This document shows positions 15,127-51,312 of a stretch of DNA of 64,000 bases, in pieces. The notes below the pieces were generated by a model. That model made no database searches. It was not told the origin of the DNA and was given only the letters and a program-made list of their open reading frames with translations. Numbering within the stretch: the first letter of the stretch is position 1; each line of letters begins with the position of its first letter. Origin of the DNA: Bdellovibrionota bacterium (lineage in GTDB: Bacteria > Bdellovibrionota_G > JALEGL01 > DATDPG01); contig DATDPG010000019.1 in the NCBI GenBank assembly GCA_035292885.1, positions 59,570 through 123,569 of the forward strand, written 5' to 3'. Both the position numbers and the translations under genes were made by a program.

Positions 15127-15203
15127 ATGGATATTTTAGTGTTCGTCTCCCGAAGAATAAGAACCATGATATGCATCATGCCGGGATAATTCCCGTCAAG
15201 GGC

Positions 15204-20131: not shown

Positions 20132-20132
20132 C

Positions 20133-21715: not shown

Positions 21716-21719
21716 TGCG

Positions 21720-30256: not shown

Positions 30257-30269
30257 TCAGAGGTGTTTA

Positions 30270-37129: not shown

Positions 37130-38365
37130 CTACGGTAAGTGCTTCGCATTCGGACTCGCCGGAGCCAGGCTCGTCAGAAACGCATAGAGATCCGCCATCT
37201 CCCGGCCCGTCAGTTTGGGCCACTTCAAGTGTTGCTCGGTATGCTTCTCTTGCATCTCGGTGGAGTGGTTCCACATCGCCGCGACCATGCCCATGGGGGA
37301 GTTCAATTTGCTGATGGCGGCGAAATCTTTCGCCGCGTTTCGTCCCTTGCCGTTTAAGGAGTGGCACGTCAGGCATTCTCGGTCCCTAACGAGATTCTCC
37401 CCTGTGGCGGGGCTCCCCGGTGCGTCCTCCAGTTTCATGCTGTAGAGATACGCGATGACGTGCGCCATCTCCCCCTCCTTGAAATCCGGGAACGTGAGTT
37501 TCTTTTCTTTCATCATCTCCCACATGGCGGGGCCGTGATTCCACATCTTGGCCGCGATCTCGGTCACGGGATAGTTGAAATCGACCTCAGCGAAATCGGG
37601 CGCCGTGGTTGGTGGTTTGGCACGGAACGAATGGCAATGCATGCACCCTTTTTCGGTCAAGAGTTCCTTCCCCTTTGAGGGATCGCCGAGGTCATAGTCG
37701 CTGGCCGGGAAGACGGTCGGGGCCATATACGAACGGATTCCGGCGGCCAGGGCGTCCATCTCGTCCTCTTCGATGACGGGCCGATCGATCTTGTACTTCT
37801 CAAAAAGCGCCAGCATTTTCGGGCCATGGTTCCACATCGCTTCCGCCAGTCGGATGGGGGAGATGTATTCCTTTTTCGCGCTGATGTCGGGAGCGATTCG
37901 GGCGCCTTCCCCTCCAAATTGATGACAAGAGAAGCATCCCTTTTCCTTCAGCACCTTTCTTCCCATCGATTCCCTCACCGGTTCCGCCATGTACCGGATG
38001 AAAGAGAGATAGCGAACCAGCTCGGACATCTCCTTCGGCGTGAACTTCGGAAAGGCATACCCTTTGGTCTCGATCTTCTTCGCCATTCTCGGAAGGTGAT
38101 TCCACATGACGGAAGAAAGCTCGAGGTATGTACCGTAAAACTTGCGGTTGCCCAGGTCGGGACCGCCGCGGCCCCCCCTCCCGTACACGGAATGGCACTG
38201 CGCGCATCCCTTCTGATGGAAGACTTCCCGACCCGGCCACGGTGAGGCCGAAGTGGCTGCTTCCTGCGCCCGAAGGGCGAAAATGGAGCCGGATGACATC
38301 AGGAGATACGCGAGAATGAATTGCAGGAGGCGGATGCAGTTTCTCCGGGTAGTGGACATAGTCAC
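37130..38365 (-). CDS. Tetrahaem cytochrome c built from four tandem class-I-like domains (paralog of 21720..22931)
   Basis: Signal LLQFILAYLLMSSGSIFALRA. CAQCH, CFSCH, CMHCH, CLTCH, each followed by MWNHxxxM. Confidence 0.85.
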   Translation of the reverse strand: MTMSTTRRNCIRLLQFILAYLLMSSGSIFALRAQEAATSASPWPGREVFHQKGCAQCHSVYGRGGRGGPDLGNRKFYGTYLELSSVMWNHLPRMAKKIETKGYAFPKFTPKEMSELVRYLSFIRYMAEPVRESMGRKVLKEKGCFSCHQFGGEGARIAPDISAKKEYISPIRLAEAMWNHGPKMLALFEKYKIDRPVIEEDEMDALAAGIRSYMAPTVFPASDYDLGDPSKGKELLTEKGCMHCHSFRAKPPTTAPDFAEVDFNYPVTEIAAKMWNHGPAMWEMMKEKKLTFPDFKEGEMAHVIAYLYSMKLEDAPGSPATGENLVRDRECLTCHSLNGKGRNAAKDFAAISKLNSPMGMVAAMWNHSTEMQEKHTEQHLKWPKLTGREMADLYAFLTSLAPASPNAKHLP

Positions 38366-38828: not shown

Positions 38829-39257
38829 TCATTCTTTGAAGGGATTGAGGATTCGCAAGTCCTCTACGTGAAAACCATGCTGCAGGTCTTCGGTATAGAG
38901 CGCGTCACAATTCGAGGCCAGTGCCTGAGCCACAATGGCCGCATCCCAGAAAGACCAGCGATAACGATGCCGAAGGCGACACGCGTGGACGAAGATTTCC
39001 TGAGTTGTCACGACCGGGTCCCATGAAAAGTAACTACGACAGACATCGACGGCATCCTCGAAGGAAAGAGGTTTCGGGATCTTGGTCGCGACCGTGACGA
39101 GAAATTCCTGCAACACCTGCAGGCTCGTCGCAGCCGATTGGTTTTCCCAATGGGCCTTTACGAGATCCGAAGATCGATTTGATTTACCGGAATCACTTCG
39201 ATCATACGCATAGACGAGAATATTCGTGTCAAAGAAAGCGCGCCTATTTTCGGACAT
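38829..39257 (-). CDS. vapC: PIN-domain toxin VapC
   Basis: RAFFDTNILVYAYD (N-terminal acidic PIN motif), plus a later FWDAAIVAQA and ...YTEDL. Overlaps the upstream antitoxin gene by 14 nt. Confidence 0.85.
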   Translation of the reverse strand: MSENRRAFFDTNILVYAYDRSDSGKSNRSSDLVKAHWENQSAATSLQVLQEFLVTVATKIPKPLSFEDAVDVCRSYFSWDPVVTTQEIFVHACRLRHRYRWSFWDAAIVAQALASNCDALYTEDLQHGFHVEDLRILNPFKE

Positions 39258-39489
39258 GCAGGGCGTCCCTCGACCAGGTCACCTTTCCCACTTCATACAG
39301 GCCCTTCGCCATTCTTCGCATTTCCTTGCGAAACGCACGTTGATGAAGCGATTTCCGCGAAATGAGTTCGTGGGCGTATTTGGCAAGAAGCCTGGAGACA
39401 GACTGGTTGGCTTCGGCCGCGGCGATTCGGAGCTTTCGCAACAACGGGCGGGGGAGGGTCAACGTGATGTTTTCGAGATCTCTCTTCAT
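39244..39489 (-). CDS. vapB: Ribbon-helix-helix antitoxin VapB
   Basis: Start at MKRDLENITLTLPRPLLRKLRIAAAEANQSVSRLL (RHH beta-strand + helix pattern). Confidence 0.7.
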   Translation of the reverse strand: MKRDLENITLTLPRPLLRKLRIAAAEANQSVSRLLAKYAHELISRKSLHQRAFRKEMRRMAKGLYEVGKVTWSRDALHVRK

Positions 39490-39551: not shown

Positions 39552-40793
39552 TTACTTGCGCGGCGGAGGAAGCGAACGGATTTTGAGAGCCAGAGCGATG
39601 ACCAACAACGTGAGGAATATTGTGCTGATTCCGAGGCCGACTCGGCGGGTTTTGTTTTCGCGGAGAGCGGCTTTCCCCAAAGCGATGGCTTGATCCACAG
39701 CTTTTCGTCCCTCCGTGATCTTCGCCTCCACCCCCGGCATGGAAAAGGAGTGAATCTCGGTTCGTGCCTGAATCAACGCCTGCCGGGCATTTTGCATGCT
39801 GTCCTCGGCTTCGGTGACGTCCATTCCCTTGTCCCTCGCTTCTTCGATAATCTTCGAAGCTTCGGCCGAATAATTCTTCAAAGAGCCGATCATCTTGGAG
39901 AACGCCATGGCCACGGCGGCGCCTTTATCCCCCTCTTTGTGGCACTTGGCGCAGATCGCGCCTTGCTGCGTCCCGATCCGGTCATCTGAGATGTGAACGA
40001 TCAGATGATTGCCGTGGCAGGAAATGCATTCGCCGTAGGGATCCTTCTGCAGGGCTTTCGCCATGGGACTCTTGAGAAACAGCTCGGCGTTGTGGACGTG
40101 GCAGGAGCCGCAAATATGGGCGATGGATTTCAGTCCCGGCGGTGTGGCGCCGTGGTTGCCGTGACAATCGTTGCAGGCGGGAGCGCCCCGGACATCTCCT
40201 TTTTCAAGCAGAGCTTTCCCATGCACACTTTTCGCGTACTCGGCATAGACGGTCGTCGAGATCTTGTACGGCTTCATATATTCGGGGTCGGCGTGGCAAT
40301 GGGCGCACATCGTCGGCAGGTTCACCGCGTAAACCGGAGACTTCGCGTCGTTGACTTTCCGGATGTTGTGCACGCTGTGGCAGCTGACGCATTCGGCGAC
40401 TTTGGTGTCCCCCTGTTTCAGTTTCTTGCCGTGCTGGCTGGTCAGGTAGAGCTCATACTGATCGACCCGAAGCATCGGGTTGTATTTCTTCATGAAGACC
40501 GGGTTGCTGTGGCATTTCGCGCAAAGTTTCGGAATGTCCGCCCTCTTCGGCGCCCCTTTGAAGCCTTTCTTCGGGTCCATTGAGATATCTTGGTCGTCCG
40601 AGGTCGGATCTCCGCCGTGGCATTCGTTGCACCCGATTCCCGCCGTGGCGTGCACGTCATCCTTCCAGCGGGTGGAGGGCTCATCTTCCATCGACTGATG
40701 GCAGATAAGGCATTGGCCGCCGGGCAGCGCAGCAGCTTCTTCGGCGTATGCCGACGAAAGTACGTTCAGCAGAATGAATAAAATCCAACTCAT
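39552..40793 (-). CDS. Nonahaem cytochrome c with C-terminal TM anchor (partner of the Rieske/cyt b complex)
   Basis: Start MSWILFILLNVLSSAYA in an ATGA overlap with the cyt b stop. CLICH, CNECH, CAKCH, CVSCH, CAHCH, CNDCH, CGSCH, CISCH, CAKCH. C-terminal GLGISTIFLTLLVIALAL. Confidence 0.85.
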   Translation of the reverse strand: MSWILFILLNVLSSAYAEEAAALPGGQCLICHQSMEDEPSTRWKDDVHATAGIGCNECHGGDPTSDDQDISMDPKKGFKGAPKRADIPKLCAKCHSNPVFMKKYNPMLRVDQYELYLTSQHGKKLKQGDTKVAECVSCHSVHNIRKVNDAKSPVYAVNLPTMCAHCHADPEYMKPYKISTTVYAEYAKSVHGKALLEKGDVRGAPACNDCHGNHGATPPGLKSIAHICGSCHVHNAELFLKSPMAKALQKDPYGECISCHGNHLIVHISDDRIGTQQGAICAKCHKEGDKGAAVAMAFSKMIGSLKNYSAEASKIIEEARDKGMDVTEAEDSMQNARQALIQARTEIHSFSMPGVEAKITEGRKAVDQAIALGKAALRENKTRRVGLGISTIFLTLLVIALALKIRSLPPPRK

Positions 40794-41881
40794 GCGAGTA
40801 CGTGTCCGGCGATGGTCATTCCTATAAAAAAAAGCAATAGCGCCATCCCGATGCCGCGGAGAATCTTTGTGGTCGATTTCTTTTTTCCGCAGTCGATCCA
40901 TGGAATAAGCAGCCAAAACACGCCGATCCCGCCGAAGATCATGTGTCCGACCAGCTCCCCGTCAATCGGCCCCACCTTGGCGGGCAAGAACTTGAGCGTC
41001 TGGAACATGAAAAGGAAATACCACTCCGGTTTGATTCCGGCCGGGGCGGAGGCGAAAGGATCGGCTTTCCTTCCCAGTTCCCAGGGGAAGAAGACCGCCA
41101 GGATCGCCAAAATATCGAGAATGATAAACCAAAGTAAAACGTCCCGGAGAAAGAAGTGCGGGAAAAACGGGATACTCTTCCGGTTTTCCGGGTGGCGTTT
41201 CCAATCTTCGGGCTCGTGCATTCCCTGGATCTGCACGAACAGCAAATGAATACCCAGAACGGAAGTGAAGATCGCCGGGAGGAGGGCGACATGCAAAGCG
41301 AAGAAGCGGGTCAGCGTAGAGCCGGTGACTTCTTCTCCGCCGCGGAGAACATGCATGAGGGTTTTCCCGATGTACGGCACGACGCCGATCATGTCGGTGC
41401 CGACCTTGGTGGCGAAGAAGGAAAGTTCGTTCCACGGCAGCAGGTAACCCGAAAACCCGAACGTCATGACGATTCCCAGAAGGGCGAGCCCCGTGACCCA
41501 GCTGAGTTCGCGGGGTTTCCTGTAAGCTCCCATGAAAAAGACGCTGAACATGTGGATGATGACGGCCAGGACCATCAAATTGGCCGACCAGCTGTGGATC
41601 GACCGGATCAGCCAGCCGAAAGGCACTTTCGATGTGATAAATTGAACGCTCTCGAAGGCCGCGTCGGCGCTCGCCTTGTAATAGAACATCAGGAGAATGC
41701 CGGTGGAGAGTTGGACGATGAAGAGAAAGAGGGAAACTCCGCCGAAGTAATACCAGATCGCGGTCTTTCCCATCGGCACTTCTTTGTGCCGCCCCCACTC
41801 AATCAGCTGTGCGATGGGATATCGGTCGGACAGCCATTCGATCGCGAGAGCGGCCCTACGCTTTAAGTGAGATGTAAACAT
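40790..41881 (-). CDS. Cytochrome b (fused b6 + subunit-IV-like) of a bc-type complex
   Basis: YYFGGVSLFLFIVQLSTGILLMFYY, RSIHSWSANLMVLAVIIHMF, GYLLPWNELSFFATKV and the PEWYFLFMFQTLK (PEWY) motif. Confidence 0.9.
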   Translation of the reverse strand: MFTSHLKRRAALAIEWLSDRYPIAQLIEWGRHKEVPMGKTAIWYYFGGVSLFLFIVQLSTGILLMFYYKASADAAFESVQFITSKVPFGWLIRSIHSWSANLMVLAVIIHMFSVFFMGAYRKPRELSWVTGLALLGIVMTFGFSGYLLPWNELSFFATKVGTDMIGVVPYIGKTLMHVLRGGEEVTGSTLTRFFALHVALLPAIFTSVLGIHLLFVQIQGMHEPEDWKRHPENRKSIPFFPHFFLRDVLLWFIILDILAILAVFFPWELGRKADPFASAPAGIKPEWYFLFMFQTLKFLPAKVGPIDGELVGHMIFGGIGVFWLLIPWIDCGKKKSTTKILRGIGMALLLFFIGMTIAGHVLA

Positions 41882-42308
41882 CTTCTCCCTGAACGTGGAC
41901 TTCGTACGTGTCGAGCGGGTGAGGCGGCGGGCCGGCCACATTGTTTCCGTTCAAATCGTATTGACCGTTGTGACAAGCGCACCAAATGCGCTCCATGTCG
42001 GGCCGGTACTGGACGATGCAGTCGAGGTGCGTGCATTTTCCCGTGAACGCGGCGAAACTGCCGTCCTTCTTGCGGACCAGCAGCGCCGGTTTGTTTCCGA
42101 ACTTGCAGATTTTCCCGCTGTTCGGGGGAATCTCGGAGACCGCAGCGACTTTCGCCGAAGAGACTTTGGCTTCGGTCTCCGCGACAGGAGTGAGGTAGCG
42201 AACGATCGGATAAAAGACGGACCCCACCCAGGCGAAACCGCTGGCCCCTAAAAGGGTGTTCAAGAATCCGCGTCGGGAGGTTTCGGTCGAGCTTCGAATC
42301 GGTTTCAT
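41856..42308 (-). CDS. Rieske [2Fe-2S] protein, Tat signal
   Basis: SRRGFLNTLLGASG. CTHLDC...CACHNGQY Rieske boxes. Confidence 0.9.
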   Translation of the reverse strand: MKPIRSSTETSRRGFLNTLLGASGFAWVGSVFYPIVRYLTPVAETEAKVSSAKVAAVSEIPPNSGKICKFGNKPALLVRKKDGSFAAFTGKCTHLDCIVQYRPDMERIWCACHNGQYDLNGNNVAGPPPHPLDTYEVHVQGEDVYISLKA

Positions 42309-42448: not shown

Positions 42449-42604
42449 TTACGACGAACGGTTGATTTTTAACCACCGGTCTCGGAGCGCGGGGTTATTT
42501 CTCCAGACCTCAAAGATCATCCTTCGGTATCCTTCGAGCCAAAGAATAATCTGTTCAGGCGTGAGTTTGGGTGTTCGTCCCCAGTCATGAGTTGTTTTAG
42601 GCAC
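42449..42604 (-). CDS. Possible 51-aa small ORF downstream of the NTase-fold gene (below track cutoff)
   Basis: GTG start overlapping the NTase stop. Hand translation gives MPKTTHDWGRTPKLTPEQIILWLEGYRRMIFEVWRNNPALRDRWLKINRSS. It resembles the small protein at 23509..23691. Confidence 0.25.
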   Translation of the reverse strand: MPKTTHDWGRTPKLTPEQIILWLEGYRRMIFEVWRNNPALRDRWLKINRSS

Positions 42605-43094
42605 TTTCTTGCCCTGTAAGTTTTCTCAATTCCGCTGCGTCGAAAAGGTCCTTGTCTCTGCCGGCTCTGTCCTTCATTTCAATCAGGTCCATTTTGCCGA
42701 TCACTCTAATTTTAATTCCAAAGGCATCGACCAACAATTGCCTGCCCGCAAGTTCCTGAAATGGCTTGGGTTCTTGTGAAAAGACATCGATGACTTCAAA
42801 TGGATTTCCCGGGTGAATGAAAGAGAAAACCATCATTCCCTTTTCCTCTATCCATTCTTTGCGTTTATGCGCATCGGCGAAATCTTTTGCATCAACCGGC
42901 AGGCGGGGCTTGAAACCAAGATGCGAGACCATTTCTACAAATGCCAGGACATTTTTGCGCTCAAGGTGCACGATGAGATCAAGATCCACGGTCGCTCGTT
43001 GGACCTGATGAAAATTCACGGCGAATCCGCCTGCGACGAGATACTCGATTTTTCTTCGGTCAAGCTCAATGAAAAGTTCTTTGTACGGAACCAT
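42597..43094 (-). CDS. Nucleotidyltransferase-fold protein (paralog of 22946..23512)
   Basis: LVAGGFAVNFHQVQRATVDLDLIV and VIGKMDLIEMKDRAGRDKDLFDAAEL. AT-richer than its flanks. Confidence 0.55.
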   Translation of the reverse strand: MVPYKELFIELDRRKIEYLVAGGFAVNFHQVQRATVDLDLIVHLERKNVLAFVEMVSHLGFKPRLPVDAKDFADAHKRKEWIEEKGMMVFSFIHPGNPFEVIDVFSQEPKPFQELAGRQLLVDAFGIKIRVIGKMDLIEMKDRAGRDKDLFDAAELRKLTGQESA

Positions 43095-43236: not shown

Positions 43237-45168
43237 TTAAGGGTTGGGGCGATCGAGTTCGCGCGGATGATCCCGTTCCATTTCATGGCGGGTCACTTTG
43301 CCCGTGAGCCACGTTACGTTCATCGGATATTCATCCGGATGGAATATCACGAAGAAGAGGTGCCACACGAGAATGGCCAGCGTCGCCAGCCACGCCTCAA
43401 AATAGTGAATCAACTCCGCCAGCGGGATGCCCCAAACGGGAAGGAATCTTGAAAACAGTTCTGGAAACCAGAGCGCAAAGCCCGTGACCGACATCACGAT
43501 CGTTCCCCAAATGAGCGCCCAATATTCCGCCTTGTGAATGTACGTGTACCGGCCGAGCTTCGGTGCCGTGGCTGCGCGCGCCCGGACGAGTTTAACGTAA
43601 TAAAAGATGTTGGCCGATAAATCCCGGACATCCGTGAGACGCGGAAGAAGCTCCCGAATCTCCTTTCGGCCCTGACGTGTGAAGATCGAATGGAAAATGT
43701 GAAGGACTCCCGCGCTTAACATGATCACCGCGCTGGTACGATGGATGACGCCGCGAGCGTGTTCACCCAAATGAACCCAATCCAAAATCACCGTCCAGCC
43801 GGCGCGAGAAAAATGAAGCGCGAAGCCGGTGATGACAAGCGTCGTAAAGCTCACCAGGAGCAGGCCGTGAGCCACGAGCTGAATCGTTGTGAATCGGGTG
43901 TAGACGACTTCTTCCCGGTGTGAGCGGATCTTTTTCACGACGGCCGCTGCATAAATGAGCAAGTTATGAAGAAGCATCAGGCCGATCGTGCTGACAATCA
44001 TCCAGAGATAGAGAATGCGAACCCAGTAGAGAATGGGGCTGGCTGTCGGAGAGGTGTCCAAGTGCACGGGAACGCGGCTGAACGCCTGCGTTGCATCGGG
44101 GTGGCACTTGCCGCAGGTCTTGGCCAGGTTGTCCGGATGAATCGAGGAGCGGGTATCGGAAGAGGGGAGAATCCGGTGCGTTTCATGGCAGCTGGAACAG
44201 TTTGCGACGGTGACCGAGCCGCGCCGGACGGCCATGCCATGATAACTCTGCATGTACGTTGAAAGCCGTTGAATTGAAAATCCGTATCGCTGGGCCAGAG
44301 TAAGATCGGAATGACAGTGGCCGCACGTCTTCGTTGTCAGCTGTGCAGGCGACACAGGCGATTCAGGCGATTTCGTGTCGACGATGGCGTGTTCGCCGTG
44401 GCAGTCCGTGCAGGCGGGGGCGTCCGTAATCCCGCGAGCGACGGCCTGTCCGTGCACGGAGACCTTATAATCTTCTAAGATATCGCTGTGGCATCTTCCA
44501 CATGTTGCGGGAATTTGTTTCTTCGAAACCGCGGACATCATTTCACGTCCCGGCTGGATCGTGTGATAGCCGTGACAGTCGGTACAGACGGCGGCTTTCA
44601 GATTACCAGCCGCAATGGCACGACCGTGGACGCTGTTTTTATACGCGCCGACAGGGTCGGACACGGGGATGTCGTATTTCTTGGCGAGTTTGATGTCGGC
44701 GTGACACTTGGCGCACAAAGCGGGGACGTTGGCTTTGCTGTGTCTCGCGGTTTCGCTGGTGAACGGCTGAATCAAATGCGCGTCGCCGTGGCAATCGACA
44801 CAAGAAGGCGCATCTGAAATCCCATTGTTCTTTGCAGTGCCGTGCGTGCTGCCGCGGTACTCCTTTTCGGCATCTTCATGACAGCTTCCGCAATTTACTT
44901 TTTGTGGAGCTTCCTCATGCTCGCCGAAGGGCCCGCCGGCGTGGCAGTCGGTGCAGGCTAGTTCGCCGTGGACGGAAGCCTTGAAAACTTTGGGATCCAC
45001 GACGTCATGGCAATCAACACACTTTTTCGGATCGATTCGGTTCGCGGCAAAAACCGACGAAATCGCAAACATTGCGCAGCCGACGAATGCCAAGCCCGAT
45101 TTTGTAAAGGGAACCCCGGTCGGTTTCAAAAATTGGACACTCATCCGATGAAAACGCCCGCCAAGCAT
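43237..45168 (-). CDS. CbcL-like inner-membrane fusion: 11-haem cytochrome c domain + HydC/FdnI-type cytochrome b domain
   Basis: Eleven CXXCH motifs: CVDCH, CTDCH, CGSCH, CVDCH, CAKCH, CTDCH, CGRCH, CTDCH, CGHCH, CSSCH, CGKCH. These are followed by a 4-TM b-type domain (YTRFTTIQLVAHGLLLVSFTTLVITGFAL...IHKAEYWALIWGTIVMSVTGFALWFP) with conserved His. The start may be the internal MSVQF at 45144. Confidence 0.8.
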   Translation of the reverse strand: MLGGRFHRMSVQFLKPTGVPFTKSGLAFVGCAMFAISSVFAANRIDPKKCVDCHDVVDPKVFKASVHGELACTDCHAGGPFGEHEEAPQKVNCGSCHEDAEKEYRGSTHGTAKNNGISDAPSCVDCHGDAHLIQPFTSETARHSKANVPALCAKCHADIKLAKKYDIPVSDPVGAYKNSVHGRAIAAGNLKAAVCTDCHGYHTIQPGREMMSAVSKKQIPATCGRCHSDILEDYKVSVHGQAVARGITDAPACTDCHGEHAIVDTKSPESPVSPAQLTTKTCGHCHSDLTLAQRYGFSIQRLSTYMQSYHGMAVRRGSVTVANCSSCHETHRILPSSDTRSSIHPDNLAKTCGKCHPDATQAFSRVPVHLDTSPTASPILYWVRILYLWMIVSTIGLMLLHNLLIYAAAVVKKIRSHREEVVYTRFTTIQLVAHGLLLVSFTTLVITGFALHFSRAGWTVILDWVHLGEHARGVIHRTSAVIMLSAGVLHIFHSIFTRQGRKEIRELLPRLTDVRDLSANIFYYVKLVRARAATAPKLGRYTYIHKAEYWALIWGTIVMSVTGFALWFPELFSRFLPVWGIPLAELIHYFEAWLATLAILVWHLFFVIFHPDEYPMNVTWLTGKVTRHEMERDHPRELDRPNP

Positions 45169-45213: not shown

Positions 45214-45588
45214 TTATTTCGCCTTTGACTGCAGGTCTCGCGTGTATTCCGTCAACGCCGTAATGTCGGCGTCCGACAGTCCTTCCAACTTCTTCATCTT
45301 CCCTTTGCCCTCTTTCATCGACTTCTTAATGTCGTCGTCGGTGATTTTCTTGGCTTCGGGGGAAAGGATGCTGAGCCCTTCCGGCTTTTCGAGCTTCAGG
45401 GTTTTAGCTACCGGCATCCAGGAGCCGTCCGCCTTCTTTCCGCCGCCGTCTTCCGCGTGGCATTTCTTGCAATGCTTGTCGTACAGCGCCTTTTTCGCGG
45501 CGTCATCCGCCGCGAATGCGGACGCGGCAAACATCAAAGCGGGCACAACCAGGATTCCGATCAGTCCAATCAACGTCTTCTTCAACAT
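45214..45588 (-). CDS. Small periplasmic monohaem cytochrome c (paralog of 12625..12975)
   Basis: Start MLKKTLIGLIGILVVPALMFAASAFA behind RBS GGAGGA. Single CKKCH. Confidence 0.85.
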   Translation of the reverse strand: MLKKTLIGLIGILVVPALMFAASAFAADDAAKKALYDKHCKKCHAEDGGGKKADGSWMPVAKTLKLEKPEGLSILSPEAKKITDDDIKKSMKEGKGKMKKLEGLSDADITALTEYTRDLQSKAK

Positions 45589-45719: not shown

Positions 45720-48700
45720 TTAACGCAACGTCGCGTTCGGAACCGCCACGCCGGTGATTACCTTATACGTCCCTTGGAGGACGCCGACCTCGTATCCGGC
45801 GTTATGGACGCCCATGCTGCCGTCTCGAACCACCAGATTGTGGTTCCAGATCGCCCGGCGGATCTTGTCGGATCGGGCCCACTTGAAGGCCCCGCCGGCG
45901 GGATAGACGCTAACGCCGGGGTTGCAGTCCGCGGCGTTCGTGCAGGCCGTAGTAAGGTCGTTGTCGCACTTGCCGGCAATGTACGCCCCGCACGTGCTGA
46001 GGCACTTGTCGTGCGTCGGCGTCGGATCCAAAGGATCGACCGTACCACACGAGATGGTCGTATCTTCTTTGCACCGGTTCTTGCTCGAACCCGAGGTATT
46101 GCACGGACGCGCATCCGCGCCTGCACCGTTGAAGTTCGAGTAACCCAGAGCGTCCGGAACGATGCAGTCGTTGTCCGTGGAACACTCGATCTCATCCGTA
46201 CTCCCGGCGGTGGACCTCGGTTTTGCGATGGTGCACTTGTTGGTCGCAGTGACACAGGGGCCGAAGTACATCGTCCCCGTCGTCGCAATTTTGCAGTCCT
46301 CGTCCTTGGAGCAACTATAGGCCGAACGTTGATCACACTTTCCGGCTGTGATCGTCCCGCACGGTCCGTAGTTCGTCGCTGATACGGTCGTCACATTCAC
46401 CTTCTTCAGGTTGCATCCGGCATCCGAAGTGCAGAATTGAGCGTCGGCCACAATCGTAGTACTTGCTGCCGAGCAAGTCTTGACCGCGTCGCAACTCGTG
46501 TCACCAGCCGCCGTGCAACTGATGTAGGGCGCCAGCGTACACTTCTTGTTTGCGTTGCAGTCACCCGCGTCCAGTGTAGTGACACTGCACGTTCCCAGGT
46601 TCACGTCGTCGTACGCTTTGATGGCGTCCGACAAGAGGAGCGCAAGCCCCGTGACTTCGTCCTGGATCCCCTCGATCGTCCCATCGCCGTCGTAATCGCC
46701 GCGAGCCTCACGGTTAATCTCCGTGAGATCCGTGTGACATGGCGTGCACGCGCTGATGTTCGCGAGCTCACCCGCTTCACCGGCTACGGTCTCCTCTTCC
46801 TCGGCACCGACTAGATGGCCGACGCCGTGACCGCTCATAATGTTGAAAGAGTGACCGCCCAAGTGGCGGAACCCATCCTCCGTCGCATCCGGCCCCTCGG
46901 CCATGTGGCACGTGAGGCACTTCCGGTTCTCCGTCGGCAATGTCGGGTCACCCGAAACATCCGCCAGAATAAATCCCGGCTCGGAATGGAACGAATTCCC
47001 CGTTGTGAAGACATCGTCGATTCCGTTTTTGTCGAGGTCGAGAAGAGCCCCCTTTCCTTCGAGAACGGGAGCCTGCGGATTGTAGTGGACCTGTCGCGTG
47101 TAATAGTCCGCGTTTTGCTCCAACGTCTCGCAGAGCGTATCTGAAACGCCGTCGCGATTCGTGTCGCACGAAAACTCTCCGAAACTGTAGAGGCCGTCGT
47201 GGCACTTGTAACAAACGGCCGCCTTCCCGGCATCCACTGTCGATTCGTCGATGATCATCTCGAGCTCTCCGTGCATTCGAAGCTGGTCCTCGTTTGTCGC
47301 GTCGTGCGGGTCATGACACCCAGCGCACCCGATACCGACGAAAGCCTCCTGTTCCGTGATCGGCGTGAGGGCTTCCTCGCCCCCCTCCACATAATTGATG
47401 AAGCCCTTGGAGGTATGGCAGCGTGTACAGGCTGCGTTCGTGAGCCATGAAACCTGATAGCTGGCGGAGCCGTGCGAGACGCCGGTCATGTTGTGCGAGG
47501 AGTTGATCCATTCGGCCTCTTGCGTATGACACTGGCCGCAGATACCGGTCTGAGAAGCGGAGACACCGATCTTCGTGGCGTCGCCGTTGTGTCCCGAACC
47601 CGGGCCATGGCAATTCTCACACTGAACACCGCTTAGAGCGGCCACGGAAGGCGCATCCGCCAAGAAATCGGCGTATGTGCCCGGCTGGGTGGAAACGTCA
47701 AAGCCGGTCGAGGCCACGGCCTCGTCAAATCCGCCGTTTGCGGCGGACGTATTGTAACCGACCGTTTCAAAGCCCCACAGATAGGGCTCGGGTGCCAGCG
47801 ATGACATGGCCAGATACGAATTTTCGTAGAGCTTTGAGTGATTTGTTCCCTGCCACTCGCCGACTTTGTCCGGCATCGCCGAACCGTCATGGCATCCGGC
47901 GCACTCGGGCCTCGCCGCGTCGCCGGTGATACTTCCGATGCCTACATACGTCCCGGCATACATCCGGAACGAACCCACGATCGTGCAATGATCCACGCCG
48001 CCGTCCGAGGTGTATTTACAATTGGGCGCGACACGGCCGCACGCCCGTACACCATCCGCATCGGGTCCCACAGCCGATTCATCGACCGTCGCCGTGTAGG
48101 CCACCGTGTAATACCCCTCGACATCCGGCGTGAACTTGGGGAGCTGAAGCGCTGAGGCTACGGTTCCGGAATCGGCAAAAACGGCTGCAGATCCATCCGG
48201 GGGTGTCAGCGTCCAAGACCAGTCATCGTTGATGGGCTTGGCGCGCCTCGTGGTCGGCGTGCTCGTCGAAGGCAACGAACCGTTACACGCTGTCGAAGTG
48301 GATGTGTACTCCAATATGACCGAACTGTTCGGTCCCTGCAGGTAGAGGGGAACATTCAGCGGAACGGTCCAAAGACCGCTCGACCGCTGAATCTCGGCAC
48401 CGGCGTCCTGAACATAGACCACCTGTGTCGTGCTGTCGCTGTTCCCGGCACCGTCGTCCACCGTCAACCTGAAATAGAGTTTCGTATCTTCGATCGAAAC
48501 AGGGAGCGGTTGCCACTTGTACTCATCACTTTGTCCGCCGTGCGCGGCGTTCTCCTCAGCTTCCCTCAAACCGACGGTCAGAAAATCCTTAAGCGCGGGA
48601 GCGGTGAACGGAAGAGTTGAGGACGTGCTCCCGGCCGTCGCGGTCGCGAAGGGGCCGGAGACCTGCTGCCAGCTGTAGTTCACGACACTTCCGCGGCTGT

Positions 48701-49163
48701 TTTCGCCGGAGAGAATTCCACCCGCGTCTTCCAAATCGATGGCCAGTTCATCCGTTCCGAATCGTGTGCGTGTGGTGATGGTGGAACCGGAACCGTTCGT
48801 GATGACCGCAAGAATCGTCTTGGCCGTGACGCTGACCGTGTCGGTGCTTTCGGCATCGTGGAGAGAGAGTTTCAACACGTACGTGCCGGCCGCGTCCGCG
48901 ACAAAGCTGGTCGCGATTTCGGAACCGCCCGTCAGAGCGGCGGAAGAACCGTCGGGTTTCGATTCAAGCGTCCATATAATATTGCCGACGACCGTGCTTC
49001 CGGAACCGTCCAAATTCACGGTGTCGCCGATCAGGACCTTCTGGTCCTCGCCTGCGTTAGCGGCGGCGGTCCCTTCCGGATCGTCGTCGCATGCCGAAAC
49101 ACTGATCGCCACGGCGGCAGCCGCGAGAAGATTGATCATCCAAAGTCCCTTCGTGCTTTTCAT
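45720..49163 (-). CDS. Giant surface lipoprotein octahaem cytochrome c with PKD-like domains and Cys-rich C-terminal repeats
   Basis: Start MKSTKGLWMINLLAAAAVAISVSAC (lipobox; RBS GAGGGAGAG). Motifs CAGCH, CENCHGPGSGH, CGQCH, CTRCH, CAGCHDPH, CYKCH, CLTCH, CTPCH. PKD-like DTVNLDGSGS...AGTYVLKLSLHD. C-terminal 4-Cys modules. Confidence 0.85.
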   Translation of the reverse strand: MKSTKGLWMINLLAAAAVAISVSACDDDPEGTAAANAGEDQKVLIGDTVNLDGSGSTVVGNIIWTLESKPDGSSAALTGGSEIATSFVADAAGTYVLKLSLHDAESTDTVSVTAKTILAVITNGSGSTITTRTRFGTDELAIDLEDAGGILSGENSRGSVVNYSWQQVSGPFATATAGSTSSTLPFTAPALKDFLTVGLREAEENAAHGGQSDEYKWQPLPVSIEDTKLYFRLTVDDGAGNSDSTTQVVYVQDAGAEIQRSSGLWTVPLNVPLYLQGPNSSVILEYTSTSTACNGSLPSTSTPTTRRAKPINDDWSWTLTPPDGSAAVFADSGTVASALQLPKFTPDVEGYYTVAYTATVDESAVGPDADGVRACGRVAPNCKYTSDGGVDHCTIVGSFRMYAGTYVGIGSITGDAARPECAGCHDGSAMPDKVGEWQGTNHSKLYENSYLAMSSLAPEPYLWGFETVGYNTSAANGGFDEAVASTGFDVSTQPGTYADFLADAPSVAALSGVQCENCHGPGSGHNGDATKIGVSASQTGICGQCHTQEAEWINSSHNMTGVSHGSASYQVSWLTNAACTRCHTSKGFINYVEGGEEALTPITEQEAFVGIGCAGCHDPHDATNEDQLRMHGELEMIIDESTVDAGKAAVCYKCHDGLYSFGEFSCDTNRDGVSDTLCETLEQNADYYTRQVHYNPQAPVLEGKGALLDLDKNGIDDVFTTGNSFHSEPGFILADVSGDPTLPTENRKCLTCHMAEGPDATEDGFRHLGGHSFNIMSGHGVGHLVGAEEEETVAGEAGELANISACTPCHTDLTEINREARGDYDGDGTIEGIQDEVTGLALLLSDAIKAYDDVNLGTCSVTTLDAGDCNANKKCTLAPYISCTAAGDTSCDAVKTCSAASTTIVADAQFCTSDAGCNLKKVNVTTVSATNYGPCGTITAGKCDQRSAYSCSKDEDCKIATTGTMYFGPCVTATNKCTIAKPRSTAGSTDEIECSTDNDCIVPDALGYSNFNGAGADARPCNTSGSSKNRCKEDTTISCGTVDPLDPTPTHDKCLSTCGAYIAGKCDNDLTTACTNAADCNPGVSVYPAGGAFKWARSDKIRRAIWNHNLVVRDGSMGVHNAGYEVGVLQGTYKVITGVAVPNATLR

Positions 49164-49189
49164 GTTTTCTCTCCCTCTCATGAAAGTTC

Positions 49190-49984
49190 TTACTGCGTAT
49201 GACATATGATGCAAGCCTGTCCATTGTCCGGATGCCGAAGCGGCGTATGGCAGCCCCGGCAATCCGCGTTAGGTAGATGGTTGACGTTGCTCGGTCGCCT
49301 CGGCGTGGCCATGTGAGCCGAGCTCGTTTGGTGGCACACCACGCACCTCTGTGCCCCATACGATTCCAGCGGGTAATGACAGTTCAGGCAGTGCCGATTT
49401 TGGGACGCCCCGAACCCGGCCATGTGATCGATCGGCTTCGTTTCCATATGGCACCGCTGGCAGAAGTCGGTCCGGTGGCACGTCATGCACTGCGATCGGT
49501 CGAAGCCCACCTGGAGCGCATGGCCGCGGAGGCGGAAGAATTGGTTGTGATTCGCCGGCGGCGTGATCTGGTGGCATTCCGAGCAGCTGGACTGCGTGTG
49601 GCAGAGGTTGCAGCTGTTCTTCGTGTCGAACCTAAACCGCTGCACCAGCGCGCCGTGCTCATGCTTGAACGTCAAATCGTGCCAGGCCGGTTTCGTGTCT
49701 TTGGTCATCCCGCCTTCGTGACATTCCGAACAGTCGCTGTCTCGCGCAACATCCGGGTGCTCCCACGTTGTGCCTTCGTCGCACCCTTTGTTGCCGAGAA
49801 AAAATGGGACCGCGAGCATTATTGTTAAAACAGACAACGATCGTCTGATGGGGTGCCAAGAAAATACGTTCGGGCTCCGGTCCCGACGGTACCCCCCAAG
49901 TCCATGCTCGAGACTGCGCGTGGACTTGGGTGTCCCCGTCGGGCCACCCGAACGTATTTTCTTGGCACCCTTCAAAAGTTCCAA
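49190..49984 (-). CDS. Nonahaem cytochrome c (periplasmic/barrel-inserted component)
   Basis: CSECH, CNLCH, CSECH, CMTCH, CQRCH, CLNCH, CVVCH, CRGCH, CIICH, with paired CxxCH-x4-CxxCH units as in 13308..13910. Hydrophobic segment LSVLTIMLAVPFFLGNKGC. The exact start is uncertain. Confidence 0.85.
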   Translation of the reverse strand: MELLKGAKKIRSGGPTGTPKSTRSLEHGLGGYRRDRSPNVFSWHPIRRSLSVLTIMLAVPFFLGNKGCDEGTTWEHPDVARDSDCSECHEGGMTKDTKPAWHDLTFKHEHGALVQRFRFDTKNSCNLCHTQSSCSECHQITPPANHNQFFRLRGHALQVGFDRSQCMTCHRTDFCQRCHMETKPIDHMAGFGASQNRHCLNCHYPLESYGAQRCVVCHQTSSAHMATPRRPSNVNHLPNADCRGCHTPLRHPDNGQACIICHTQ

Positions 49985-51312
49985 GCGACCCTCACATCCA
50001 ACGTATGGAAATTGTCCAGGTCACTGGTTTCAAATTCGTACCCGAGCCGCCCCTCAAAGTCTTTGAGAAACTTCACGGTTCCCCGCGCATAGTACGTTTG
50101 GACGTTGTCCGATTCGTTCCCGGCTAAAAGGTTATATCGATAGAGGTAGAAAGCTGTTCCGGCCGTCAGCCGCAGCTTCCGCTTCAACAGGTCTTGGGCG
50201 ATGGAGAAAGATGTCCCGTACGTATCGTTCTGAAGTTCGTTGTCCTGTCCCAAATAGTAATCGCCGGTTAACGAAAGGCTCATGCCGTCGAGCGGCCATT
50301 CGATCGTTGACCCCGTCAAAAAGAACCGCTGAAAACCGTGATTGAACGCACTGGCGACCTGCTCTTCAATCAAAATACGGAATGCATACCCCGCATCCAG
50401 GGCAAAATGCTCGCCGATCCCCTTCATCCCGGTGAAGGCCATTTCGTAATACGGTTTGTATTCCCCGGCGAACGAATACGGATCCAGATCGATCACGCGG
50501 ACACCGTACGACTCGAGGAGACTGAAGAAGTGAAACTGGAGAGAAAGGTTCTGTTCGATGAATCGGTACCGGGTGTCGAGGGCCAAGTCCCGGACTTGAT
50601 CCAAGAACGATGTAAACCTCGAGGAAATCATGAGCCCCGGCTGGGCGTCCCACCAAACGCTCAGGCCGAAGAGATCATCTTCGATGTCACCGACGTTCGC
50701 CCGGAAGCCGGTGAAGTCATCCTTCAAATGAACGTAATCGAAACGGGCCCGAACCACCTTGACCGGATCGATCTCAAACGCTCCGCCGGCGACAAAATCG
50801 CCGCTGTCGGAACCGGTTTCCGTTTCGTAGAAATGGACCGGAACGCCGCCGTACGACATCAGCTTGAACCCTTTGGCTTCCCGCCACTGAAGGGAGAGGC
50901 CGTCGAAGTACAGCGACTCGAATTCCTGCCGGAACTGCCGTCCCGCGCGAAGCCGATCGAATACGCCGAGGTTGTTGGCGTCGAGGTAGGCGTGGTAGAT
51001 CCGCCCCGCGGCGCCGGTGTTGAAGGAGTCGTACACGCCATTGAACGTGGAATCCGAACTGTCGCCGTCCAGGTCGAAAATCCCGCCGGCCTGCAGGGAA
51101 ACCGCCACGCGGTCGTTCAAAGGCTCGCCCATGTTGAGCGAAAGAAGCGTTTCAAGATCCTGATCGCTGGTATCGGCGGTGGCGCGCAGTTTGTAACGGG
51201 TGCTGATGGAACCGAAAATATTGGAGTCTTCCGCGATCGCCGCATCGCAATAGACATACGCCCCAAAAAGGAGAAGCGTACATCCCAACCGACGGCGGCG
51301 AGAGGCGAGCAT
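49972..51312 (-). CDS. Outer-membrane beta-barrel (porin component of a porin-cytochrome module)
   Basis: Signal MLASRRRRLGCTLLLFGAYVYCDAAIA, amphipathic strands, and C-terminal ...LDVRVAWNF. Paralogous by eye to 13897..15126. Confidence 0.65.
   Translation of the reverse strand: MLASRRRRLGCTLLLFGAYVYCDAAIAEDSNIFGSISTRYKLRATADTSDQDLETLLSLNMGEPLNDRVAVSLQAGGIFDLDGDSSDSTFNGVYDSFNTGAAGRIYHAYLDANNLGVFDRLRAGRQFRQEFESLYFDGLSLQWREAKGFKLMSYGGVPVHFYETETGSDSGDFVAGGAFEIDPVKVVRARFDYVHLKDDFTGFRANVGDIEDDLFGLSVWWDAQPGLMISSRFTSFLDQVRDLALDTRYRFIEQNLSLQFHFFSLLESYGVRVIDLDPYSFAGEYKPYYEMAFTGMKGIGEHFALDAGYAFRILIEEQVASAFNHGFQRFFLTGSTIEWPLDGMSLSLTGDYYLGQDNELQNDTYGTSFSIAQDLLKRKLRLTAGTAFYLYRYNLLAGNESDNVQTYYARGTVKFLKDFEGRLGYEFETSDLDNFHTLDVRVAWNF

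Follow-up and report, generated by a model that had tools for sequence, protein, structure and literature searches.

A nine-haem cytochrome c encoded with Rieske and cytochrome b subunits in a Bdellovibrionota genome and in many other bacteria

Which protein takes the electron from a Rieske cluster when neither cytochrome c1 nor cytochrome f is found alongside? The question is raised by a 64,000-nt stretch of a Bdellovibrionota genome, hereafter the window, where genes for a Rieske protein and a cytochrome b are followed on the minus strand by a gene encoding a cytochrome c with nine haem-binding motifs. The trio is probably a menaquinol-oxidising bc-type complex, in which the nine-haem subunit would stand in place of cytochrome c1/f.

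The three-gene operon

ORFs and their translations, Pfam matches and gene calls on three ENA contigs agree in identifying the three genes as Rieske, cytochrome b and multihaem cytochrome. The reading frames overlap at both junctions. The ATG of cytochrome b is at 41881, with GGGAGAAG directly 5', as read from the sequence of the junction; the Rieske stop is a TAG at 41858-41856, and the cytochrome b frame overlaps the Rieske frame by 26 nt. An ATGA at 40793-40790 is common to the cytochrome b stop and to the multihaem start, and through this overlap the nonahaem gene is predicted to be translationally coupled to cytochrome b. No promoter or terminator was found inside the three-gene operon. 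The initial annotation had described a Tat-Rieske gene, a 26-nt overlap, a fused cytochrome b with a PEWY motif, an ATGA and a 413-aa nonahaem cytochrome, and each detail that was checked proved correct.

The Rieske [2Fe-2S] subunit (41856..42308, minus strand, 150 aa; Pfam Rieske 7e-14) features at the N-terminus the Tat motif SRRGFL and an anchor, and contains the cluster boxes CTHLDC (box I) and CACHNGQY (box II). Two boxes, disulfide cysteines and Tat signal/anchor, as expected of a bc-type Rieske protein, are all present. The match to the PetC TM anchor model (TM_PetC, 7.7e-06) is below cut-off (26 bits vs 37.1), as is every match to the NCBIfam b6f and bc1 iron-sulfur models. Across the family the boxes fit the consensus CTHLxC and C[AP]CHNGx[YF], and both are kept in 73 related loci. 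The G-Y signature after CxCH, interpreted by the rule in PMC4122944, predicts about 200 mV. Taken together, the Rieske signatures predict a low-potential cluster, at about +150 to +200 mV, and such a low potential points to a menaquinol enzyme. Signatures of this low to mid-minus type have also been reported from the Chlorobi/NC10/Acidobacteria and heliobacterial clades.

The cytochrome b (40790..41881, minus strand, 363 aa) results from the fusion of a b6-like four-helix part and a subunit-IV-like three-helix part, as indicated by Pfam (Cytochrome_B 3e-52, Cytochrom_B_C 1.4e-9), PDB and NCBIfam matches (cytochrome b6 220 bits, subunit IV 32 bits). The top PDB matches are cytochromes b6 (1e-53, residues 14-224), and subunit IV aligns at 254-352. 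The fusion and the PEWY motif noted in the initial annotation are right, and the cysteine binding haem ci was additionally found to be missing. The protein has seven hydrophobic segments, histidine pairs spaced H-x13-H and H-x14-H, and PEWY at the Qo site; the four histidine ligands in helices B and D and the Qo motif of bc-type complexes are hence in place. The spacing 13 plus 14 was found in 68 of 74 relatives; PEWY, a residue check proposed at the outset, is kept in 73 of them. At the position of the b6 CxGG motif, the cysteine of which binds haem ci/cn (PMC5600118, PMC4122944), the window's protein reads YYFGG, and the cysteine is absent in all 74 relatives compared. Haem ci is therefore expected to be absent.

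The third gene (39552..40793, minus strand, 413 aa) encodes a protein with a signal peptide and exactly nine CxxCH motifs, at residues 28, 55, 91, 135, 163, 207, 228, 256 and 281. No CxxCK motif is found in it. The haem region (28-285) is followed by a three-helix domain (290-349 plus 352-407), and the only hydrophobic segment, at 385-403, corresponds to a C-terminal TM anchor. This helical/TM domain is family-specific and normally located at the C-terminus, as seen in 389 representatives. In some variants of the family a TerB domain follows the TM, which places the C-terminus in the cytoplasm, as in c1/f. The predicted topology is accordingly that of c1/f, a periplasmic haem domain held by a single C-terminal TM helix. 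A c1/f domain was not detected by Pfam in window ORFs of at least 200 aa between positions 500 and 56827. Topology and scan both support the replacement of c1/f by the nonahaem protein suggested in the initial annotation, and the co-encoded, membrane-anchored c-type cytochrome of bc-type complexes is here a non-canonical subunit.

Nine residues outside the motifs, H48, H121, H142, H191, H214, H263, H348, M101 and M173, are conserved, and are candidate distal ligands, one each for the nine haems. Seven are His and two Met; the CbcL-like paralogue encoded nearby does not keep M101 and M173. Haems with bis-His ligation usually are low-potential, and the seven His candidates, if they are ligands, fit awkwardly downstream of a Rieske cluster with the predicted potential.

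Conservation of the trio

Relatives are encoded in at least 522 species genomes. Carriers include Myxococcota, Calditrichota, KSB1, Acidobacteriota, Ignavibacteria/Bacteroidota and Gemmatimonadota, as well as Zixibacteria, Binatia, Rokubacteria, Sumerlaeota and Verrucomicrobiota. Among the loci that are informative, 77 from about 15 phyla, Rieske and cytochrome b genes adjoin the nonahaem homologue in 75 (97%): gene order is the same in 63, permuted in 8, interrupted by an inserted gene in 1, and cut by the contig end in 3. Such a recurrence is far more than expected by chance. The initial annotation regarded a lack of co-conservation of the nonahaem gene with Rieske/cytochrome b as fatal to its reading, and the reading survives this comparison. 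The number of haems is also constant, exactly nine CxxCH being found in 74 of the 79 loci in which the partner gene was called.

The two exceptions are Ignavibacteria loci (L008, L019), in which the nonahaem gene is found with genes for NrfD and a four-domain cytochrome c, and Rieske and cytochrome b are missing; L019 additionally encodes a 4Fe-4S protein. The nonahaem subunit is thus not exclusive to bc cores. The arrangement could suggest that the protein is an independent anchored cytochrome, co-transcribed with Rieske/cytochrome b but receiving electrons from several quinol oxidoreductases, rather than a stoichiometric subunit. NrfD/4Fe-4S genes flanking the bc operon in 8 loci would fit, as would the CbcL-like protein, where the haem domain is joined to another kind of cytochrome b. 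The near-constant adjacency to Rieske and cytochrome b, and the overlap of start and stop codons with the latter, make independence improbable, as does the single C-terminal TM, for which c1/f and, in models of the anammox complexes, the multihaem subunits offer a parallel (PMC12954380).

Relation to known complexes

The CbcL-like protein is encoded within the window at 43237-45168 (also delimited as 43237..45129; minus strand), and is a quinol oxidoreductase in which eleven CxxCH motifs are fused to a b561/FdnI-type membrane cytochrome b (Pfam Ni_hydr_CYTB, PF01292, 2.1e-9, plus multihaem domains). The initial annotation pointed to motifs common to this and to the nonahaem protein, and proposed that the same haem module had been joined to two quinol-oxidising machines. 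The motifs are real, as they fall inside a BLASTP alignment of the two proteins (26% identity, E 1e-27). Profile comparison by hhalign of the nonahaem haem domain with the CbcL-like protein and 7 relatives gave a collinear alignment over the whole domain (probability 100%, E 2.7e-52, 293 columns), and the two multihaem domains are homologous. Like Geobacter CbcL, the nonahaem cytochrome is an inner-membrane protein with a periplasmic multihaem domain placed to receive electrons from quinol oxidation; the comparison was made with the CbcL-like protein of the window, not with Geobacter CbcL itself. In CbcL the multihaem c domain is fused to a HydC/FdnI-type cytochrome b, whereas the nonahaem protein lacks a b-type domain and any PF01292 match, and has instead a helical domain, a single TM and separate Rieske and cytochrome b partners. 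It was not classed as CbcL-type, because the haem domain is homologous but the HydC/FdnI/b561-type fusion is missing. The CbcL-like protein probably offers electrons a second way out of the quinol pool, in parallel, through a cytochrome b that would not perform a Q cycle and would serve another potential range.

Multihaem-bc complexes are already known in Geobacter and in anammox bacteria, and the nine-haem trio adds a variant to them. The G. sulfurreducens ExtMNOPQS proteins (GSU2930-2935), encoded beside the porin-like ExtI cluster, comprise a Rieske protein (ExtO), a b6-type cytochrome b (ExtP), 10-haem (ExtN) and 12-haem (ExtM) cytochromes and a class-I-type cytochrome (ExtS), with no c1/f (PMC2825233, PMC5877670). 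Rieske and b6-type cytochrome b are in both cases associated with multihaem cytochromes c, and lie near an outer-membrane porin-cytochrome cluster, a putative one in the window. In Geobacter, however, ExtP and a separate membrane protein, ExtQ, divide cytochrome b between them and two multihaem proteins are present; in the operon of the window cytochrome b is fused and the nonahaem protein takes the place of the two. Against the ExtP model the cytochrome b of the window scores 216 bits, below the equivalog cut-off of 290, and the four-domain cytochrome c encoded downstream matches the ExtS model weakly (49 bits vs a cut-off of 100); membership in the Ext equivalogs was rejected, both matches being sub-cut-off. 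No ExtN or ExtM model surfaced in NCBIfam.

In anammox bacteria (Kuenenia Kuste4569-4574 and Kustd1480-1485) cytochrome f is replaced, on a b6-like core, by a membrane-anchored cytochrome c with six or eight haems, and one of the complexes has a HAO-like octahaem partner; in AlphaFold3 models, long helices of one multihaem subunit wrap the complex (PMC12954380). These helices are reminiscent of the helical domain of the nonahaem protein, and the HAO-like partner recalls locus L041, where a HAO-family octahaem gene (PF13447 1.9e-28) lies directly downstream of the nonahaem gene. Haem numbers differ, and several features of the anammox complexes have no counterpart in the trio: b6 and subunit IV as separate proteins, with haem cN, a subunit IV of five helices, and NAD(P) oxidoreductase subunits.

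The HAO-like anammox subunit, and the annotation as nitrite reductase epsilon-Hao of the gene following Rieske/cytochrome b in Caldithrix abyssi (PMC5317091), raise the question of whether the nonahaem protein is itself a catalytic enzyme similar to HAO or ONR, reducing nitrite, hydroxylamine or NO, so that the operon would encode a quinol-driven reductase. This is highly improbable. The protein never matches PF13447, which speaks against membership in the HAO/octahaem family, whereas the separate HAO-family protein of L041 does. Comparison of the profile with PDB sequences shows only a marginal resemblance to HAO (E 2e-3, 44 residues), CxxCK is missing, and with nine His/Met candidates for nine haems no obvious five-coordinate site is left. 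The nonahaem protein further differs from HAO, ONR, NrfA and OcwA because no catalytic site is recognisable, sequence similarity is marginal, and the last helix anchors the protein in the membrane and does not form an oligomer interface.

The cytochrome b shares with b6f and with the Chlorobi/Heliobacteria-type menaquinol bc complexes the b6-like N-terminal half, the H-x14-H pair of helix D and the subunit-IV-like C-terminal half with PEWY. Points of difference are the fusion of b6 and subunit IV and the missing CxGG cysteine; cytochrome f and the small subunits are lacking, and the c subunit has nine haems. The complex was accordingly not assigned to the b6f type, as b6 and subunit IV form one 363-aa ORF instead of two, the CxGG cysteine is absent and no cytochrome f was found. 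A spacing of 13 in helix D, as opposed to 14, is the rule in bc1-type proteins. The bc1 type was similarly discarded, because no c1 is encoded by the scanned ORFs, hydrophobic segments are seven vs eight helices, and the helix D spacing is 14.

Neighbouring genes and electron flow

Other genes of the window suggest where electrons may be delivered. A 409-aa class-I cytochrome c with four domains (37130..38359, minus strand; Pfam Cytochrom_C 7.7e-25, in four stretches) contains four CxxCH, each followed by a MWNH motif. Homologues are encoded in the flanks of 17 of 80 loci by tblastn (E 1e-39 to 2e-101; 11 by ORF clustering), directly beside the nonahaem gene in nine (L008, L019, L038, L044, L052, L055, L066, L076, L078) and immediately upstream in L067. 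The protein is a probable electron acceptor or fourth member of the operon. A monohaem class-I cytochrome c (45214..45588, minus strand; Pfam Cytochrom_C 3.4e-10) is a possible soluble carrier; it did not join, in the ORF clustering of the 80 loci, the cluster of small monohaem class-I cytochromes c which recurs beside the operon in 15 of them. A putative porin-cytochrome conduit (45720..51312, minus strand), recognised by Pfam and translations and assigned to the outer membrane from sequence features, includes a 446-aa protein with a signal peptide, the C-terminal residues VRVAWNF and no family match, a 264-aa multihaem protein, and a PKD plus multihaem protein (ORF of 1180 aa, called as 1147 aa on the ENA contig). 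A strong terminator follows the conduit genes at 45686-45661. In 57 of the 80 loci a further ORF with at least four CxxCH, and up to 23 haems, is found within 6 kb, and recurrent neighbours encode CbcL-like and NapC/NirT-family proteins, putative outer-membrane barrels, and small and giant multihaem proteins.

In the bc-type complex that we favour, quinol would be oxidised at the PEWY Qo site. One electron would pass to the Tat-exported Rieske cluster and from this to a membrane-proximal haem of the nonahaem subunit; the other would travel via haems bL and bH across the membrane and reach a Qi site devoid of haem ci, a crossing that would make quinol oxidation proton-motive by a Q cycle. The nine-haem chain may act as a periplasmic wire and distributor, handing electrons to the periplasmic module encoded nearby. 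Candidate modules are here the four-domain and monohaem cytochromes c and the porin-cytochrome conduit, and in other lineages HAO-like enzymes and other multihaem proteins.

The module need not be directed outwards. In a less favoured reading, to which we give limited credence, the trio is a housekeeping complex III of aerobic or denitrifying respiration, the nonahaem protein passing electrons via high-potential class-I cytochromes c to terminal oxidases or N-oxide reductases, and the vicinity of extracellular genes is coincidental. The family is common in soil Acidobacteriota (Pyrinomonadaceae, Blastocatellia, Bryobacterales) and Gemmatimonadota, and many of these carriers are aerobes. Four-domain and monohaem class-I cytochromes c recur nearby as said above, nuoA/C/D/H are directly downstream of the operon in 5 loci, and the HAO-family gene of L041 may be viewed in the same light. 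Yet no terminal-oxidase cluster was recognised, by Pfam and by eye, among neighbour clusters 3-19, 21, 22 and 27, multihaem genes abound in the flanks, and the operon of the window sits amid the CbcL-like gene, the putative conduit and more cytochromes.

The initial annotation saw in the operon an entry point for extracellular electron transfer. The gene context is favourable, and it is from the context that we infer the role. Poorly crystalline Fe(III) oxides have potentials of about 0 V, and electrons leaving a Rieske cluster close to +200 mV would have to move uphill to reach them; given the predicted potential, an extracellular role would need either high-potential acceptors or inward flow. 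Inward flow would entail that electrons from extracellular Fe(II) or another donor move through conduit, nonahaem protein and Rieske cluster up to the quinone, at the expense of the proton-motive force. The bc1 complex of acidophilic iron oxidisers has been proposed to run in reverse, and high-potential class-I cytochromes c, apt for a branch point, are encoded nearby. The same cluster in Zixibacteria RBG-1 (L030) was read as more likely involved in Fe(II) oxidation (PMC3903129). Reverse operation is nonetheless unlikely in the window, since reverse-operating complexes are tied to APWY (PMC4122944) and PEWY is nearly invariant here, the Rieske signatures are not of high-potential type, and the window showed neither carbon-fixation genes nor obvious genes for lithotrophy.

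Tentatively, the bc-type trio may represent a widespread, unrecognised energy-conserving exit for menaquinol, a Q-cycle enzyme with a nine-haem arm plugging into porin-cytochrome conduits. If so, in Acidobacteriota, Gemmatimonadota, Calditrichota, Zixibacteria, Myxococcota/Bdellovibrionota and other lineages, extracellular electron transfer would be coupled to proton translocation at the step of quinol oxidation, in contrast with oxidases of the CymA/CbcL/ImcH type, in which no Rieske/cytochrome b core is present. Lower-potential acceptors would then be left to the CbcL-like and NapC/NirT-family enzymes encoded alongside.

A toxin-antitoxin cassette, encoding a RHH antitoxin and a PIN toxin (38829..39489, minus strand; Pfam PIN 4.7e-9, weak RHH match), is inserted between the nonahaem and four-domain cytochrome c genes, and is not part of the complex. 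A sigma-70-like promoter, matching at 11 of 12 positions, is located at 39524-39496.

The Rieske, cytochrome b and nonahaem genes

The three genes of the operon (42308-39552, minus strand) are tightly packed. The first (41856-42308) encodes a 150-aa Rieske protein featuring a twin-arginine motif (SRRGFL), box I CTHLDC and box II CACHNGQY; it matches the Pfam Rieske model (7e-14) and, below cut-off, a PetC-type TM anchor model (7.7e-06). The ATG of the second, at 41881 and preceded by GGGAGAAG, gives a 26-nt overlap with the Rieske gene up to its stop codon, and opens a frame for a 363-aa cytochrome b. An ATGA tetranucleotide is common to the TGA of the latter and the start (40793) of the third gene, encoding the 413-aa nonahaem cytochrome, which has exactly nine CxxCH and no CxxCK motifs, a signal-like segment at the N-terminus and a single, strongly hydrophobic stretch (residues 385-403). 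The boundaries (150, 363 and 413 aa) are reproduced by independent gene calls on three metagenome contigs carrying an identical nonahaem protein. ORF reading, overlaps and motifs agree as well, and the three-gene description of the initial annotation is therefore accurate.

The N-terminal 210 residues of the cytochrome b have as best PDB match a solved cytochrome b6 (1e-53), and residues 254-352 match subunit IV of b6f complexes, long bc1-type cytochromes b being close behind. NCBIfam scores are 220 bits for cytochrome b6 and 32 bits for subunit IV, both under the equivalog cut-offs, and 216 bits for ExtP, a b6-type protein encoded in the ext operon of Geobacter. Seven hydrophobic segments, the PEWY motif and histidine pairs at 13- and 14-residue spacing are present in the window protein, the 14-residue spacing in helix D being a b6 trait. 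The cysteine of the b6 CxGG motif binds haem ci (PMC5600118, PMC4122944). YYFGG is found at this position in the window protein, so that, judging from HMM and PDB scores and motifs, this is a fused b6/subunit-IV protein predicted to lack haem ci.

Rieske and cytochrome b genes were extracted from related loci, 74 sequences being available for cytochrome b motifs. PEWY is present in 73 and the 13/14 histidine spacing in 68 of these, and a cysteine at the CxGG position in none of the 74. Box II fits C[AP]CHNGx[YF] in every related locus counted. According to the rule by which the second and fourth residues after CxCH mark the potential of Rieske proteins (PMC4122944), the G-Y signature of the window protein predicts ~200 mV; in the family, 48 signatures are G-Y and 25 G-F (~150 mV predicted). 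The 150-200 mV range is that reported for menaquinol-oxidising clades, such as Chlorobi/NC10/Acidobacteria and Heliobacteria (PMC4122944), and the Rieske proteins of this family are predicted to be low-potential.

On the best reading, the complex would oxidise menaquinol and reduce cytochrome c by a Q cycle, with the nonahaem subunit standing in place of c1/f and handing electrons out to periplasmic partners. The same set of proteins might, less probably, run in reverse when electrons are taken up. This has been suggested for a cluster of Zixibacteria RBG-1, which corresponds to one of the related loci, L030 (PMC3903129); the Qo motif, PEWY and not APWY, speaks against reverse operation.

Conservation of the nonahaem family

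A search across 5.8 billion proteins with the nonahaem query retrieved thousands of relatives. The best 120, all with E <1e-129, fall into two length classes, a nine-haem form of ~413 aa and an eleven-haem form of ~487 aa, distinguished by a 72-residue insertion carrying two extra CxxCH. Both forms end alike, with a helical region and a TM helix. When the alignment was scanned against one genome per GTDB species, at least 522 loci hosting a relative were found, and the best 80 were analysed. They belong to Myxococcota, Calditrichota, KSB1, several Acidobacteriota orders, Ignavibacteria/Bacteroidota, Gemmatimonadota, Zixibacteria, Aminicenantes, Binatia, Rokubacteria, Sumerlaeota, Marinimicrobia and Verrucomicrobiota.

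The organization of these loci was monitored by tblastn, using the window Rieske and cytochrome b proteins as queries. Rieske, cytochrome b and nonahaem genes follow one another on one strand in 63 loci. The order is nonahaem, Rieske, cytochrome b in 8 others, mostly from Gemmatimonadota but also from Binatia and Rokubacteria, and in one locus a DUF2339 membrane gene is located between cytochrome b and nonahaem genes. Three trios are cut by the contig end, the remainder being consistent; the nonahaem gene lies at the contig edge in three uninformative loci, and two loci are genuine exceptions. Among the best 80, Rieske/cytochrome b genes adjoin the nonahaem homologue in 75 of the 77 informative loci. 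Co-conservation, named as the decisive test when the operon was annotated, is borne out by these figures, against which the rival notion that the nonahaem protein is a loosely associated cytochrome, and not a true subunit, has to be weighed.

Nine CxxCH are present in the partner protein at 74 of the 79 loci with the gene called. An apparent eight-haem protein in one locus (L013), suggestive at first of an octahaem or epsilon-Hao form in Caldithrix, is an artefact, as the missing cysteine corresponds to a masked N stretch.

A further ORF with at least four CxxCH is found inside 6 kb in 57 of the 80 loci. Recurrent neighbours are monohaem cytochromes c (15 loci), CbcL-like proteins (13), DUF2339 membrane proteins (12), large multihaem proteins (11), a 744-aa putative barrel with no family match (11), c554-like tetrahaem proteins (10), sigma-54 regulators (10), NapC/NirT-family membrane multihaem proteins of ~500 aa (9), NrfD/4Fe-4S proteins (8) and nuo products (5). 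An alternative reading is that of an ordinary complex III, feeding class-I cytochromes and oxidases. No recurrent terminal oxidase cluster was found among the neighbour clusters inspected in the 80 loci. Directly after the nonahaem gene, five loci from Zixibacteria/Ignavibacteriales (L032, L033, L042, L074 and L080, at ~7400-11000) feature nuoA, nuoC, nuoD and nuoH, which link the complex to the core respiratory chain in these five. Even with no more than a housekeeping role as complex III, this would be the principal, hitherto uncharacterised, bc complex of several abundant soil phyla.

Haem module, fold and topology of the nonahaem protein

The nonahaem protein belongs to no named family, Pfam and NCBIfam giving generic multihaem matches only. 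PDB sequence searches with both the protein and the family profile revealed no solved relative, the matches being generically multihaem (MtrA, 2.6e-7; NrfB, 1.5e-6; NrfA, 6e-5; HAO, 2e-3). A confident AlphaFold2 model built with 120 homologues (pLDDT 90, pTM 0.78) consists of a haem domain at ~25-285 followed by three helices, of which the first two (290-321, 327-349) are long and the last, 352-407, enters the membrane. The top Foldseek hits of the model in the PDB are anammox hydroxylamine oxidoreductases (TM 0.44-0.46 over ~400 columns, probability 1.0, E 0.02). As modelled, the protein may resemble in fold the HAO/ONR/NrfA/OcwA group, the modular evolution of which has been described (PMC9250108).

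A catalytic, HAO-like role is a rival, though unlikely, reading. The HAO model PF13447 never matched the nonahaem family. Outside CxxCH motifs, H48, H121, H142, H191, H214, H263, H348, M101 and M173 are conserved, H348 sitting in the helical domain. As far as residue conservation can tell, these nine His/Met provide one candidate distal ligand per haem, which argues for an electron-transfer chain and not for an enzyme. A true HAO-family octahaem protein matching PF13447 (1.9e-28) is encoded in locus L041 by a separate gene (7387-8634, plus strand), directly downstream of the nonahaem gene; this order resembles that of anammox Kuste4569-4574 and recalls the "epsilon-Hao" annotation in Caldithrix abyssi.

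The C-terminal 128 residues, searched alone against 1.84 billion representatives, were found in 389 proteins, in C-terminal position in nearly all. In a few longer homologues (P0145, P0194, P0240 and P0264, 575-734 aa) one or two TerB (tellurite-resistance) domains follow the TM helix (Pfam 3.5e-26 in P0145). The C-terminus is therefore cytoplasmic and the haems periplasmic, a topology which is that of cytochromes c1 and f. Curiously, selenite/tellurite is also the label attached to the ext operon in Geobacter.

The haem domain is not exclusive to the Rieske complex. The CbcL-like ORF (43237-45168, minus strand; 643 aa, or 630 aa with the start at 45129 given by the ENA contig gene call) carries eleven CxxCH and a b561/FdnI-type membrane domain. 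By BLASTP the CbcL-like and nonahaem proteins are 26% identical (E 1e-27), in alternative registers. The nonahaem family profile aligns with that of eight CbcL-like proteins with a probability of 100% (E 2.7e-52), collinearly across the whole haem domain, and the eleven haems of the CbcL-like protein correspond to those of the eleven-haem variant, insertion included. The earlier proposal that the same multihaem module is mounted on two quinol-oxidising machines is therefore supported.

A third combination is provided by the two exceptions, both from Ignavibacteria and both lacking Rieske/cytochrome b genes. Locus L019 (2437-8970) has genes for 4Fe-4S, NrfD, four-domain cytochrome c and nonahaem proteins, and the same order from NrfD on is found in L008 (92-6039), a short contig; DUF2339 is present in both. 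The nonahaem subunit thus also teams with a NrfD-type quinol module. Consistently, Ignavibacterium album has been reported to be devoid of a Rieske/cytochrome b complex (PMC3362086). The use of one multihaem module on three quinol-oxidising chassis (Rieske/cytochrome b, b561-type cytochrome b and NrfD/4Fe-4S) is a concrete case of modular evolution of respiratory chains.

Possible electron acceptors, known systems and genomic context

With a Rieske cluster at the predicted +150 to +200 mV, electrons leaving the cluster could not reduce low-potential Fe(III) oxides, a consequence absent from the initial annotation. Were the complex to feed the putative porin-cytochrome conduit nearby, it would be expected to use acceptors of high potential, for example Mn(IV), oxyanions or chelated Fe(III), and lower potentials may be left to the CbcL-like and NapC/NirT-type enzymes. 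In Geobacter, the use of ImcH or CbcL depends on potential, and the split proposed here would parallel it.

Rieske/cytochrome b cores joined to multihaem cytochromes are documented in several systems, and the kind is therefore already known. The Geobacter ext cluster encodes a Rieske protein (ExtO), a b6 (ExtP), a membrane protein (ExtQ), a cytochrome (ExtS), 10-haem ExtN and 12-haem ExtM, and adjoins the porin-like ExtI (PMC2825233, PMC5877670). In the anammox Rieske/cytochrome b complexes, the multihaem subunits carry six or eight haems and are joined by an HAO-like partner (PMC12954380). In Caldithrix abyssi, the gene after Rieske/cytochrome b has been named epsilon-Hao (PMC5317091); its identity with a nonahaem gene is at most a possibility, PF13447 being absent from the nonahaem family. 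For Zixibacteria RBG-1, a Mtr-like cluster is mentioned in passing in which a PetAB complex is accompanied by multihaem cytochromes of the inner membrane (PMC3903129). The Tenderiales "undecahaem" UetJ is an unrelated extracellular protein, and was rejected as a relative. In the literature searched, what appears new is the definition of the nonahaem subunits as a family. Also apparently new are the wide spread of this family among phyla, its almost invariable association with a cytochrome b that is fused, has PEWY and is devoid of haem ci and with a Rieske protein predicted to have a low potential, the homology of its haem domain to that of CbcL and, from the model, a possibly HAO-like fold with a helical membrane anchor.

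These data bear on which inner-membrane enzymes join the quinol pool to periplasmic or extracellular multihaem networks beyond Shewanella and Geobacter, and on whether the quinol-to-multihaem step conserves energy. The operon is a conserved and taxonomically broad candidate for this link, at least 522 species genomes encoding a relative of its nonahaem protein. Its features lend themselves to testing, namely a predicted Q-cycle core with a predicted low-potential Rieske protein and no haem ci, a nine-haem subunit homologous to the haem domain of CbcL and a family-specific helical anchor.

In the window, the operon is part of a minus-strand array running from 51312 down to 37130. The array opens with a 446-aa protein, a putative outer-membrane barrel with a signal peptide and a C-terminal ...AWNF, followed by a 264-aa multihaem protein, a PKD and multihaem protein (1180 aa as an ORF, 1147 aa in the ENA contig gene call) and then a strong terminator, a monohaem cytochrome c and the CbcL-like gene. 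A 165-aa ORF (42597-43094) with no Pfam or NCBIfam match separates the latter from the Rieske gene. Two related contigs (L082 and L083) feature at this position an 80-aa ORF on the opposite strand, so the site is a variable insertion spot.

Past the three-gene operon, a RHH antitoxin/PIN toxin cassette (38829-39489), preceded by a near-consensus promoter of its own, separates the nonahaem gene from a gene (37130-38359) encoding four class-I cytochrome c domains; the cassette is found in all three ENA contigs with the identical nonahaem protein. Promoter and terminator sites were overall no more frequent in the scan than in shuffled controls, the only noteworthy ones being the sigma-70-like promoter of the cassette (39524-39496, 11/12 positions matched) and, at 45686-45661, the strong terminator. 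In the four-domain cytochrome, MWNH is conserved in every domain ~40-60 residues past CxxCH, the methionine being a plausible axial ligand, and the protein scores 66.6 bits against the TIGR02603 haem-binding domain, just under the cut-off (68.15). By tblastn, homologues of this protein occur within the flanks of 17 loci and lie directly beside the nonahaem gene in nine; the four-domain gene was therefore probably part of the operon before the cassette inserted.

The window holds other genes as well. The 13308-16229 region (minus strand) is a possible second porin-cytochrome unit, in which a 209-aa c7/c3-like multihaem protein is encoded next to two others, of 409 aa (weak match to DUF2490) and 408 aa (no match). 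At 16940-22931 (plus strand), ~17 kb away from the operon, a further quinone-linked respiratory module is made up of genes for a molybdopterin oxidoreductase of 834 aa, a 4Fe-4S protein of 228 aa, the membrane subunit NrfD and a 417-aa protein containing three class-I cytochrome c domains. The window also encodes NnrS (2357-3553), FeoB (10412-12463), an outer-membrane barrel of the alginate-export type (500-1861) and, within 500-12463 and 26428-31850, a TLC/MFS-type transporter and three Ser/Thr kinases, one of them a PilZ fusion.
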